4,747 nt of DNA from a virus (taxonomy: Duplodnaviria > Heunggongvirae > Uroviricota > Caudoviricetes), in the IMG/VR virus record IMGVR_UViG_2703718789_000023. The stretch is one strand, 5' to 3'. Numbering within the stretch: position 1 is the stretch's first letter; the number at the start of each line of letters is the position of its first letter. The position numbers and the translations under genes were made by a program. This document shows positions 2,279 to 3,763 of this stretch, piece by piece. The notes under the pieces were generated by a model. The model did no database searches. It was not told the DNA's origin and saw nothing but the letters and a program-made list of their open reading frames with translations.

Positions 2279-3763
2279 ATGCGAAAAATAATTACTCATT
2301 TCAAAGTTGTTTTAACGTTACTTCTACCAGTAACCGTATCTGCCCAGCAGATACAGTGGCAATCCTGTATGGCCAGTCAATTCAACCACTGGTTTGGTGA
2401 GGAAAAACCGTCTCCTGACTTACTATGTGGTTATTTGTCTGTTCCATTAAAATATACAGACACAGGCGGAGATGCTTCTTATGAAAAAAAATCACAAGTC
2501 AAACTAGCGTTGACAAAATTGCCGGCAAAAAGCAAGCATAAAGGAAGTATCCTGATAATAAGTGGTGGTCCCGGGTTACCAGGCATAAATCCTTATATTA
2601 ACTTTGACTGGCCAGTCACAAATCTTCGTGAGTCATGGGATATTATTGGATTTGATCCTCGAGGCGTCGGACAGTCCACTCCGACAATAAACTGCCGGCA
2701 ATCAGATACAGAGACTCAGGAAAACATAACCGAAAAGCAACAAGTATTAAATAAAATTAATGCCTGTATCCATAATACCGGAGCCGAAGTCATTCGCCAT
2801 ATCGGCTCTAACGAGGCTGTATACGATATTGATCGTATTAGGCAAGCCTTGGGGGATAAACAACTGACAGCCGTGGCGTATTCGTATGGAACTCAAATTG
2901 CAGCCTTATATGCAGAACGTTTTCCCTACAACGTAAGATCTATCGTTCTTGATGGAGTCGTCGATATCGATGACCTGGAGGACAACTTCACATGGCAACT
3001 CAAACAGGCACAGAGTTATCAGGAAACGTTTGATCGCTTTGCATCCTGGTGTGCGCGTACAAAAAGTTGCCCGCTTTCTTCAGACAGAGATAAGGCAATA
3101 ACTCAGTTCCATGAGCTATTATCAAAATTACATCACAAACCTTTATTAGACAGTAAGGGAGAAAATATATCTTCAGATGAACTCATATCATTAACAACAG
3201 ACCTTCTGCTATGGCGTTCATCATGGCCAACCCTTGCAACTGCCATACGCCAGTTCTCTCAGGGGATTGTCAGTAATGAAATTGAAACTGCGCTCAGTGC
3301 TCCGATAGCCTCAGAAGAGTCAAGCGATGCTTCGGGGGTAATCCTCTGTGTAGATCAGGGGGATGAGCAATTAACACCAGAAGAGCGAAAATCCCGAAAA
3401 GACGCTCTTGCGAATGCCTTCCCGGCTATTAACTTTGACAATGGACGTTCCGATTCACCTGATTTTTGTGAATTATGGCCAATACATAGCGACCTGAACA
3501 AAACTCGCCTGAAAAATACTGTTCTGCCCTCTGGTTTACTGTTTGTAGCACACAAATACGACCCAACAACGCCCTGGATTAATGCCCGTAAGATGGCAGA
3601 GAAATTTTCCAGCCCGTTACTAACAATAAATGGTGATGGGCATACATTAGCTCTCACCGGAGTTAATTTATGTGTAGATAAAGCAGTTGTACATCACCTG
3701 ATCACTCCACAAAAAATAGAAAATATATACTGCCCAGGAAATTCTGAAGCAGAAATACAATAA
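2279..3763 (+). CDS. Secreted alpha/beta-hydrolase-fold serine hydrolase, S33 peptidase-like (TAP / prolyl-aminopeptidase / Hip1-like), with N-terminal Sec signal peptide
   Basis: 494-aa ORF. Signal peptide MRKIITHFKVVLTLLLPVTVSA with predicted cleavage before QQ and no lipobox Cys. GGPG oxyanion-type motif at aa 96-99. GFDPRGVGQS at aa 124-133, typical of S33 enzymes. Nucleophile elbow A-Y-S-Y-G with Ser202 (codon tcg at nt 2882-2884). C-terminal GDGH with His455 (INGDGHTLAL). Ten Cys residues, consistent with a disulfide-stabilised periplasmic or extracellular enzyme. Weak RBS (GAGA) 4 nt before the ATG. Confidence 0.85.
   Translation: MRKIITHFKVVLTLLLPVTVSAQQIQWQSCMASQFNHWFGEEKPSPDLLCGYLSVPLKYTDTGGDASYEKKSQVKLALTKLPAKSKHKGSILIISGGPGLPGINPYINFDWPVTNLRESWDIIGFDPRGVGQSTPTINCRQSDTETQENITEKQQVLNKINACIHNTGAEVIRHIGSNEAVYDIDRIRQALGDKQLTAVAYSYGTQIAALYAERFPYNVRSIVLDGVVDIDDLEDNFTWQLKQAQSYQETFDRFASWCARTKSCPLSSDRDKAITQFHELLSKLHHKPLLDSKGENISSDELISLTTDLLLWRSSWPTLATAIRQFSQGIVSNEIETALSAPIASEESSDASGVILCVDQGDEQLTPEERKSRKDALANAFPAINFDNGRSDSPDFCELWPIHSDLNKTRLKNTVLPSGLLFVAHKYDPTTPWINARKMAEKFSSPLLTINGDGHTLALTGVNLCVDKAVVHHLITPQKIENIYCPGNSEAEIQ

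Follow-up and report, generated by a model that had tools for sequence, protein, structure and literature searches.

In the 4,747-nucleotide stretch of viral DNA analysed here (the window), a gene for a predicted exported serine hydrolase follows the gene for an omptin protease, and the two make up a mobile cassette. What is new is that this gene lies almost always directly downstream of an omptin gene, that the two members of each pair appear to diverge together, and that the hydrolase has a dN/dS of about 0.13. The hydrolase itself is an ordinary member of a known family; its possible partnership with the omptin is the interesting part. The observations are best explained overall by a Sec-exported envelope serine hydrolase of the Hip1 branch, encoded as the second gene of a mobile omptin cassette, and we regard this explanation as probable. 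The features of the window are collected in Table 1.

Table 1. Features located in the window and the basis of each assignment
Feature	Position	Strand	Basis
attR core, 3' fragment of tRNA-Arg argU ("pauD")	670-719		Same segment annotated tRNA-Arg in other genomes
Perfect PhoP box (TGTTTATATTTTGTTTA), ompT promoter region	1039-1055	-	0 mismatches to KGTTTA-N5-KGTTTA
ompT, omptin outer-membrane protease, upstream cassette partner	1139-2092	+	Pfam Omptin E 2.8e-130; NCBIfam NF008222 708 bits
ompT terminator hairpin	2112-2140	+	dG -19.7, z -2.5
Exported alpha/beta serine hydrolase gene, Hip1/TAP-like (predicted)	2279-3763	+	494 aa, ATG start
Predicted signal peptide, aa 1-22, SPase I cut predicted after VSA	2279-2344	+	Sequence features
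GGPG (aa 96-99), predicted oxyanion-hole loop; Gly97 = Hip1 Gly110	2564-2575	+	Gly97 and Pro98 invariant in 42 sequences
Ser202 codon, predicted nucleophile (Hip1 Ser228)	2882-2884	+	Hip1 alignment; invariant
Asp428 codon, predicted catalytic acid (Hip1 Asp463)	3560-3562	+	Hip1 alignment; invariant
His455 codon, predicted catalytic base (Hip1 His490)	3641-3643	+	Hip1 alignment; invariant
Hydrolase intrinsic terminator	3784-3819	+	14-bp stem and T-run; dG -24.4, z -5.4, 0/200 shuffles fold as well
Tail-fibre-assembly (tfaX-type) remnant, last 57 nt	3947-4003	-	APEC O78 annotation mapped to window
Strain-specific deletion junction, cassette end to lysis module	4004-4055		Homology breaks either side
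Rz-type lysis protein remnant, C terminus missing	4017-4172	-	RefSeq annotation of NZ_CP027548.1 mapped
rrrD phage lysozyme (context)	4169-4666	-	Pfam Phage_lysozyme E 1.7e-45 and annotation

Linkage of the Hydrolase Gene to Omptin Genes

The hydrolase gene was present in 1254 of 5426 complete Escherichia coli genomes (23%), including that of O157:H7 as ECs1662, and was full length in 1230 of the 1254 carriers. Among the genomes with an intact hydrolase, ompT was directly upstream in 1221 of 1230; viewed from the other gene, an intact hydrolase directly downstream of ompT was present in ∼39% of those complete E. coli genomes that contain ompT. A named paralogue, YuaR of the F plasmid, shares 76-79% amino acid identity with the hydrolase, and ompP was directly upstream of yuaR in 156 of 180 yuaR plasmids. 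YuaR (UniProt YUAR_ECOLI, "Putative hydrolase YuaR") matches the phage-borne protein in length and motifs, and its gene likewise directly follows that of an omptin, but it is plasmid-borne and is preceded by a 92-nucleotide spacer with a strong Shine-Dalgarno sequence, as opposed to 186 nucleotides and a weak one.

Carriers of the cassette included the argU-integrating lambdoid phages of the DLP12 lineage, the O157 prophage Sp8 and IncF plasmids, the last with diverged versions consisting either of ompP-yuaR or of an ompT-like omptin and its hydrolase. Amino acid identities, given as omptin/hydrolase, were 100/100, 90/96 and 70/77-79%, a pattern that points to co-divergence of the two proteins. 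The abundance of the gene, its named paralogue and the tight omptin linkage had escaped the initial annotation, which allowed that the gene might prove to be a common, already characterised E. coli enzyme; it is common, yet no characterisation was found in the literature searched.

Linkage to an omptin is restricted to the E. coli clade. No omptin was found near distant homologues at 79 loci of other species, and homologues of 52-54% identity in Budvicia, on a Salmonella plasmid and on Serratia plasmids had neither an omptin nearby nor a common neighbour. Most homologues are chromosomal stand-alone genes of Actinomycetota and Proteobacteria. This distribution bears on the proposal that the hydrolase is an anti-phage or superinfection-exclusion factor of prophages and plasmids, which, possibly in concert with the omptin, would break down phage proteins on entry or alter receptors. 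Exclusion genes are common in the settings in which the gene occurs, namely the accessory region of temperate phages and conjugative plasmids, and a PADLOC model (PDLC01094, "C3a206, TAP-like protein") matched the protein over its full length (E 6.8e-56). The origin and validation of that model were looked for but could not be traced, however, and many PADLOC entries are untested candidates. Given also the mostly stand-alone homologues and the lack of any conserved neighbour, defence genes included, at 12 proteobacterial loci, an exclusion function appears distinctly improbable.

Phage Origin and Position of the Cassette

Identity to the viable phage 2G7b began exactly at position 670, which marks the start of phage-derived DNA, and positions 1-669 represent the chromosomal envY flank. 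ARAGORN detected no complete tRNA at attR, and no Rfam families were found within the window. Between 670 and 4003, identity to viable lambdoid phages was 99.6%. The initial annotation described the hydrolase as phage cargo, and this is borne out by its presence in 11 phage records at 99.6-100% amino acid identity, outside the essential modules, among them the isolated temperate phages 2G7b, ev243, Turner and the PhiR series.

The same annotation had assigned the gene to the bor/moron slot, an assignment that must be revised. The gene order in intact phages is int-attP-ompT-hyd-tfa-ybcY-tfa-stf-lom, such that in these and in most prophages the hydrolase is located between attP/ompT and a tail-fibre-assembly gene, beside ompT and tfa rather than the lysis cassette, in the equivalent of the lambda b region. 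The tfaX-type remnant likewise comes after the omptin-hydrolase cassette in other elements. Homology to all cassette-bearing elements stopped at 4003, and that to the K-12 DLP12 lysis genes began at 4056. Thus, the hydrolase adjoins the Rz remnant here because this strain has lost everything between position 4003 and Rz. The convergent orientation of the hydrolase and the lysis genes was as originally described, since both the Rz remnant and rrrD occupy the opposite strand. In O157 Sakai, prophage Sp8 carries the hydrolase at its right end.

The statement that the K-12 locus holds no counterpart was also correct: appY occupies the slot there, between ompT/attP and tfa and in the opposite orientation. 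Given that K-12 OmpT functions without the hydrolase and that B2 strains have cleanly deleted it, the gene is dispensable. Alternative cargo at this locus is not mentioned in the AppY paper, and searches of the literature on phages 2G7b and ev243 and on Nesevirus returned nothing relevant. Like the lambdoid morons (bor, lom and the appY of DLP12), the hydrolase gene is accessory, ends in a terminator of its own and occupies a non-essential region of temperate phages; defective prophages have kept it, and it is expressed in lysogens. It differs from bor in that its slot is between ompT/attP and tfa and not beside Rz.

Transcription Signals

Omptin promoters with a reverse-strand PhoP box have been described (bioRxiv 10.1101/2020.02.28.965145), and the ompT promoter region of the window contains a perfect example. 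The ompT terminator hairpin was kept in all omptin contexts aligned, those of K-12 and ompP included. The ompT-hydrolase spacer (positions 2093-2278) contains a weak Shine-Dalgarno sequence; a consensus scan of its plus strand revealed no sigma-70-like promoter, and no PhoP-box-like site was found in it. Consequently, of the promoter-like and terminator elements originally ascribed to the hydrolase gene, the terminator is retained and the promoter was not recovered.

Primary Structure and Export Signal

The open reading frame and the motifs reported for it in the initial annotation were reproduced in full, with GGPG at residues 96-99, GFDPRGVGQS at 124-133, AYSYG at 200-204 (Ser202) and GDGH at 452-455 (His455), as were the 10 cysteines (residues 30, 50, 139, 163, 258, 264, 357, 397, 465 and 485) and a putative Sec signal peptide. 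By eye, the N terminus (MRKIITHFKVVLTLLLPVTVSA, followed after the predicted cut by QQ) has a basic n-region, a hydrophobic core and V-x-A at -3/-1; inspection of the same residues revealed no lipobox. The secretion signal is therefore predicted to be of the SPase I type and the protein to be Sec-exported, with a mature form of 472 residues (52.5 kDa, pI 5.4). Residues 1-20 had a pLDDT of 50-56 in the AF2 model.

A shorter start at Met31, used in a phage RefSeq record and in PHROG 20134, was considered and dropped. The long start was taken as correct because the upstream residues Trp27 and Cys30 are conserved in homologues, and it is the long form that yields the signal peptide. All 10 cysteines are invariant or nearly so across homologues, and nine align with cysteines of Hip1.

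Family and Fold

The S33-type label given initially, here putative, follows MEROPS, in which Tap, prolyl aminopeptidase and Hip1 are filed under S33. Profile searches placed both expected domains above the gathering score: Pfam Abhydrolase_1 (PF00561) matched residues 91-460 with 115.9 bits (cut-off 25.8, E 3e-33), and the TAP-like Abhydrolase_4 (PF08386) matched residues 386-479 with 54.2 bits (cut-off 21, E 1.7e-14). Using phmmer, the hydrolase was aligned over its full length to Hip1 chains 7sfm, 8e5w and 5ugq (E 3.5e-51 to 7e-50, 27-30% identity). The AF2 model (pLDDT 89.9, pTM 0.90) was submitted to Foldseek, and the best matches were all to Hip1 (E 1e-33, TM 0.77-0.82). Helices within residues 230-409, between strands 219-225 and 420-427, are predicted to constitute an all-helical lid in the alpha/beta core, and the TAP-like C-terminal part comes after this lid, as in the Hip1 architecture.

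The Pfam, phmmer and Foldseek results support a TAP/Hip1-type alpha/beta-hydrolase, and the grouping with prolyl aminopeptidases proved too broad. The prolyl aminopeptidase equivalog TIGR01249 gave 35.8 bits, below its cut-off of 259.75, and aligned to residues 167-263 alone, and the TM score to the prolyl aminopeptidase fold of about 310 residues (1wm1, 1qtr and 1azw) was 0.35. From its sequence and modelled fold, the hydrolase is a full-length Hip1 homologue, probably of the alpha/beta-hydrolase peptidase branch that contains Hip1, SlpD and Tap.

Hip1 (Rv2224c, CaeA) is a cell-envelope serine protease of Mycobacterium tuberculosis that cleaves GroEL2. The two proteins share the order of the triad residues, the oxyanion hole, a threonine by the acid residue, nine cysteine positions, the lid fold and predicted export to the envelope. 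They differ in that the signal is of type II (lipoprotein) in Hip1 and predicted to be of SPase I type, without a lipobox, in the E. coli hydrolase, and in that the latter belongs to a Gram-negative host, is borne by phages and plasmids and is linked to an omptin. The Streptomyces tripeptidyl aminopeptidases Tap, SlpD and SlpE, members of MEROPS S33 and the source of the "TAP-like" name of PF08386, have by family description the same PF00561 and PF08386 architecture; SlpD and SlpE are lipoproteins of a Gram-positive mycelium. TnmK1 and TnmK2 of tiancimycin biosynthesis are similar in overall fold, lid included (TM 0.76-0.81), but are more distant in sequence (E 4e-18 and 2e-8 versus 1e-51 for Hip1) and are surrounded by a natural-product cluster that is absent at the hydrolase locus. 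Hip1 has been described as similar to SlpD and SlpE, and its 11 cysteines are predicted to form five disulfides (PMC4022732).

Catalytic Site and Substrate Pocket

The roles of the active-site residues of Hip1, in the triad and the oxyanion hole, have been described (PMC13041806). Ser202, Tyr203, Gly97, Pro98, Asp428, Thr431, His455 and Thr456 of the hydrolase were invariant in 42 homologues with identities down to 27%, and the Hip1 equivalents of the active-site set are Ser228, Tyr229, Gly110, Asp463, Thr466 and His490. Asp428, located within DPTTP (residues 428-432), supplies the predicted acid residue that the initial annotation did not specify, and Tyr203, which follows the nucleophile, corresponds to the Hip1 oxyanion residue Tyr229. 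Taken at the level of sequence, the Ser202-Asp428-His455 triad and the Gly97/Tyr203 oxyanion hole appear intact, with Ser202 in a nucleophile elbow (AYSYG) of the G/A-x-S-x-G type.

The pocket is less conserved. With reference to the S1/S1' sites of Hip1, Arg232 is replaced by Gln206, Lys469 by Ile434 and Glu113 by Leu100. Because these residues differ and vary within the family, the specificity of Hip1 is not transferable to the hydrolase. The altered pocket is one argument that the enzyme is not a peptidase but an esterase, lipase or lactonase, whose target would be the ester bond of a lipid, of an acylated component of the envelope or of a small-molecule lactone. Alpha/beta-hydrolases are promiscuous, and Hip1, deposited as "Carboxylesterase A", cleaves pNP-butyrate as well as azocasein, APA-pNA and GPL-pNA, all in an S228-dependent manner (PMC4022732). 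The source records carry the names "putative lactone hydrolase" (phages) and "pimeloyl-ACP methyl ester carboxylesterase" (JGI), but these are automatic annotations. Given that Hip1 and SlpD/SlpE/Tap, its nearest characterised relatives, are peptidases (PMC4022732), and that the TAP-like Pfam domain and the weak next-best matches to prolyl aminopeptidases favour the same activity, an enzyme restricted to esters is judged unlikely.

Selection and Expression

The hydrolase is under purifying selection, with a dN/dS of 0.12-0.15 at dS values of 0.16-1.1. These statistics largely refute the view that the gene is a functionless passenger hitch-hiking beside ompT. The existence of K-12 and B2 lineages without it, occasional insertions of IS elements (as in H128) and the lack of a phenotype in the literature searched could be reconciled with such a passenger; constraint maintained over dS of up to about 1.1, the preponderance of full-length copies among carriers, the intact set of catalytic residues and the transcription of the gene leave it barely credible. 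For YuaR, a single peptide has been detected by proteomics in the literature, which is weak evidence against the passenger view.

In O157 Sakai, the ECs1662 transcript was detected from the prophage state, was transcribed in exponential phase and was growth phase-regulated, with a log2 change of -2.53 at the stationary transition compared with -2.72 for ompT, both genes falling in expression cluster 1 (PMC2241611). Given that this cluster is very large, the shared behaviour is weak evidence for co-regulation of the hydrolase with ompT.

Proposed Function

The hydrolase is most likely a periplasmic serine peptidase/esterase that is co-inherited with an omptin. It would be exported by the Sec pathway, stabilised by disulfides and located in the periplasm or otherwise in the envelope. 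By analogy with Hip1, a peptide (or ester) would be bound beneath the lid and attacked by Ser202 at its scissile carbonyl, and peptides or unfolded proteins of the cell envelope would be the likely substrates. Less certainly, the enzyme may serve lysogenic conversion by complementing the omptin, for instance through further degradation of the fragments that the surface omptin makes from host cationic peptides. No functional work, enzymology, localisation or phenotype for the hydrolase or YuaR was found in the literature searched.

A more extensive proposal, which we consider doubtful, sees the omptin and the Hip1-like hydrolase as the two tiers of one envelope protease module that co-evolves and moves horizontally: the surface omptin would cut host cationic peptides or proteins, and the periplasmic hydrolase would finish the fragments or process an envelope or host target common to both. 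The module would then serve phages and F-type plasmids in the lysogenic or plasmid conversion of E. coli, O157:H7, APEC and ETEC included. If this were true, E. coli would possess a counterpart in function to Hip1, the immune-evasion protease of tuberculosis, and all omptin studies would have missed it; if there is no omptin partnership, the hydrolase is one more accessory hydrolase.

OmpT, OmpP and ArlC are studied as virulence or fitness factors that degrade antimicrobial peptides, and ompT encodes a protease that is removed from protein-production strains. Should the hydrolase contribute to peptide resistance, envelope proteolysis or the degradation of recombinant proteins, phenotypes attributed to the omptin locus or to prophages would need to be re-read. 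Since the cassette is small, mobile and easily deleted or moved with existing phages, the question is directly testable. As a minor observation, the neighbouring gene appears to have been mislabelled in one omptin paper.

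Family, Fold, and Catalytic Residues of the Hydrolase

The window is 100% identical to sequence of Escherichia coli strain 2014C-3061 (NZ_CP027548.1). The profile-HMM search called for in the initial annotation returned two Pfam domains that exceeded their gathering scores, Abhydrolase_1 (E = 3e-33) and, for the TAP-like C-terminal part, Abhydrolase_4 (E = 1.7e-14). Among all PDB sequences, the closest were those of the Mycobacterium tuberculosis serine protease Hip1/CaeA (7sfm, 8e5w, 5ugq, and 5uoh; E = 3.5e-51 to 7e-50, residues 21-475). TnmK1 (E = 4e-18) and TnmK2 (E = 2e-8) matched much more weakly, and prolyl aminopeptidases only in the nucleophile region (E ~1e-3). 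A confident AlphaFold2 model (pLDDT 89.9, pTM 0.90; 42-sequence alignment) comprised an alpha/beta core and, after strand 219-225 and before strand 420-427, a predicted all-helical lid. In Foldseek, this model superposed best on six Hip1 structures (E ~1e-33, TM 0.77-0.82), followed by TnmK1/2; prolyl aminopeptidases reached no higher than TM 0.35. The family assignment made previously was upheld, the protein being a Hip1/TAP-like alpha/beta-hydrolase. Prolyl aminopeptidase identity was rejected (35.8 bits against an equivalog cut-off of 259.75).

All of the motifs reported initially were found in place: GGPG (residues 96-99), GFDPRGVGQS (124-133), AYSYG (Ser202), GDGH (His455), and ten cysteines. 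The triad (Ser228/Asp463/His490) and oxyanion hole (Gly110 and Tyr229) of Hip1 (PMC13041806) correspond to Ser202/Asp428/His455 and Gly97/Tyr203. Neither these residues nor Thr431 or Thr456 vary among 42 homologues, whose identity falls as low as 27%; the catalytic apparatus is intact and fits the proposed triad, for which Asp428 is the predicted acid. By contrast, the pocket positions L100, Q206, K242, I434, and K438 are variable among homologues and differ from those of Hip1. The ten cysteines show little or no variation in the homologue alignment, and nine align with cysteines of Hip1, which has 11 and five predicted disulfides (PMC4022732). The wider family numbers 12,070 representatives at a threshold of E ≤ 1e-3, of which 435 pass E ≤ 1e-30. 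The nearest relatives are from Enterobacterales, Pseudomonas, and Chromobacterium (40-54% identity), followed by actinobacterial proteins (~30%). The hydrolase is a new, uncharacterized member of this known family.

The N terminus, MRK followed by a hydrophobic core and VSA/QQ with no lipobox, resembles an SPase-I signal peptide, and these features fit the Sec signal predicted initially. The RefSeq record of phage 2G7b (NC_049954.1; 9091-10485 of the locus) and PHROG phrog_20134 begin the protein at Met31. This start was rejected, as a protein beginning there would lack both the signal peptide and two conserved residues, W27 and C30; the correct form is that of 494 amino acids.

Hip1 cleaves azocasein, Ala-Pro-Ala-pNA, Gly-Pro-Leu-pNA, and pNP-butyrate in an S228-dependent manner (PMC4022732). 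By analogy, Ser202 would hydrolyze peptide bonds, and perhaps ester bonds as well, in the envelope or periplasm, and DsbA-type oxidation would precede activity. A role as an esterase or lactonase is a less likely alternative that draws on automatic annotations and on the esterase side activity of Hip1. A full-length match to PADLOC model PDLC01094 "C3a206" (E = 6.8e-56), described only as "TAP-like protein," supports an anti-phage role, an unlikely alternative.

A Conserved, Mobile Omptin-Hydrolase Cassette

What adds value to this family assignment is a conserved and mobile two-gene cassette. In all E. coli contexts, the hydrolase gene is the immediate 3' neighbor of a co-directional omptin gene. 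This partner is ompT in phage and prophage genomes, ompP on IncF plasmids including F, and an ompT-like omptin on the ColV-type plasmid p111. The two genes form one contiguous block in 1221 of the 1230 E. coli genomes with a copy of the hydrolase at ≥80%, and ompP-yuaR does so in 156 of 180 plasmids with yuaR, the F-plasmid paralogue. Amino acid identities for omptin and hydrolase across pairs (100/100, 90/96, and 70/77-79%) indicate that the two co-diverge. With dN/dS at 0.12-0.15 (dS up to ~1.1), the hydrolase gene evolves under purifying selection, which contradicts the alternative of a functionless passenger. Speculatively, the hydrolase might cooperate with the omptin, for example by degrading omptin-made fragments of cationic host peptides. 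No omptin was found within 7 kb of homologues of 52-54% identity or at 79 loci from other species, nor any other neighbor in common among more distant homologue loci; the link does not reach beyond the E. coli contexts to these. In plasmid F128 of K-12 DHB4, ompP 5' of yuaR appears as two tblastn segments in different frames (3962-4905 of the locus) and is absent from the gene table; this F' derivative may carry a frameshift in ompP.

Features of the cassette region (window coordinates)
Feature	Position	Strand	Remarks
Perfect PhoP box TGTTTATATTTTGTTTA	1039-1055	-	~85-100 nt upstream of ompT start
Hydrolase ORF	2279-3763	+	494 aa
Intrinsic terminator of hydrolase	3784-3819	+	14-bp stem; dG -24.4 kcal/mol; z -5.4
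Deletion junction	4003-4056		cassette homology ends 4003; K-12 DLP12 lysis-gene homology (92%) begins 4056
Rz remnant (truncated gene)	4017-4172		adjoins cassette end; rrrD beyond

Phage Origin and Chromosomal Derivatives

Phage-derived DNA starts at 670 with the argU-derived attR core, and from there to 4003 the window shares 99.6% identity with 2G7b, an isolated temperate phage. The hydrolase is genuine phage cargo, as initially proposed, because isolated temperate phages carry it (eleven records, 99.6-100% protein identity). The gene order in 2G7b, Turner, and PhiR26_1 is int - attP - ompT - hydrolase - tfa - ybcY-like methyltransferase - tfa - stf - lom. The suggested bor position was therefore not upheld: in intact phages, the gene lies in non-essential DNA bounded by attP and the tail-fiber genes. 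A "tRNA-Pro" annotated in the attP region of Turner (3392-3475 of the locus) is likely an over-call; the equivalent window stretch is an argU (tRNA-Arg) 3' fragment, in which ARAGORN found no tRNA.

In most chromosomal carriers (e.g. APEC O78), sequence beyond 4003 runs into a tfa remnant and then the methyltransferase. In 2014C-3061, homology to every cassette-bearing phage or prophage ends at this point and the Rz remnant and rrrD come next; a strain-specific deletion has thus joined the end of the cassette to the lysis genes. This prophage no longer has bor, the genes for packaging, head, and tail, or anything else that lay between the truncated Rz and the tfa remnant.

K-12 shares ompT and its terminator with the window to ~2142, beyond which appY occupies the slot on the opposite strand, in agreement with the claim of no counterpart at the K-12 locus. 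B2/UPEC-type strains retain ~160 nt of the ompT-hydrolase spacer before a clean 1977-bp deletion (equivalent to window 2249-4225; 7-nt junction overlap in FDAARGOS_1283) that takes out the hydrolase with its terminator, as well as the greater part of the tfa remnant. Given this residual spacer, their arrangement derives from a hydrolase-bearing one. The deletion agrees with the genomic context described as having "low omptin activity" in CFT073, UTI89, and 536 (PMC6854850). In O157:H7 Sakai, the cassette (ECs_1663, ompT; ECs_1662, "hydrolase") is at a different integration site, the right end of lambda-like prophage Sp8 beside minCDE. ISEc8 (IS66 family) lies between the hydrolase terminator region and tfa remnant in two O157:H7 loci (L013, 12041-14353; L096, 16938-19379), and IS2 disrupts the hydrolase gene itself in strain NC22.

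Transcription of the Cassette

The ompT PhoP box lies where AT content is very high (GC 0.32-0.36 between ~750 and ~1200) and fits published PhoP control of omptins (bioRxiv 10.1101/2020.02.28.965145). A terminator hairpin is conserved 3' of every omptin gene, and the terminator claimed for the hydrolase itself was confirmed as a strong intrinsic one. The claimed promoter was not reproduced: a consensus scan of the + strand of the 186-nt spacer (2093-2278) found no sigma-70-like site, and no PhoP-box-like site was found there. By comparison, a strong Shine-Dalgarno sequence is present in the ompP-yuaR spacer, which is just 92 nt long. At the stationary-phase transition of O157 Sakai, mRNA levels of ECs1662 and ompT changed by log2 -2.53 and -2.72, respectively, both in expression cluster 1 (PMC2241611). 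Thus, the hydrolase gene is transcribed; cluster 1 being large, shared membership is weak evidence for co-regulation with ompT.

Prevalence and Annotation

The initial annotation had allowed that the gene might be a common, already characterized E. coli enzyme. Common it is (1254 of 5426 complete genomes, with ≥99% identity in 1213), but its annotation is generic: "alpha/beta hydrolase" only in E. coli genomes and unknown function in PHROGs. The ~77% identical YuaR (UniProt "Putative hydrolase YuaR") was mentioned in the literature searched solely through one peptide listed in a table of proteomics data. An omptin study placed a gene "186 bp downstream of ompT" in isolate "cystitis 6" and called it ymcE, a cold-shock gene (PMC6854850, section 3.5). 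Given that the hydrolase has precisely this spacing, the name is probably an annotation slip, and the hydrolase evidently went unrecognized. A 4.3-kb contig assigned to "MAG: Bacillus sp." (JBJEFM010000006.1) matches the E. coli ompT-hydrolase cassette at 100% and is almost certainly contamination or mis-binning.
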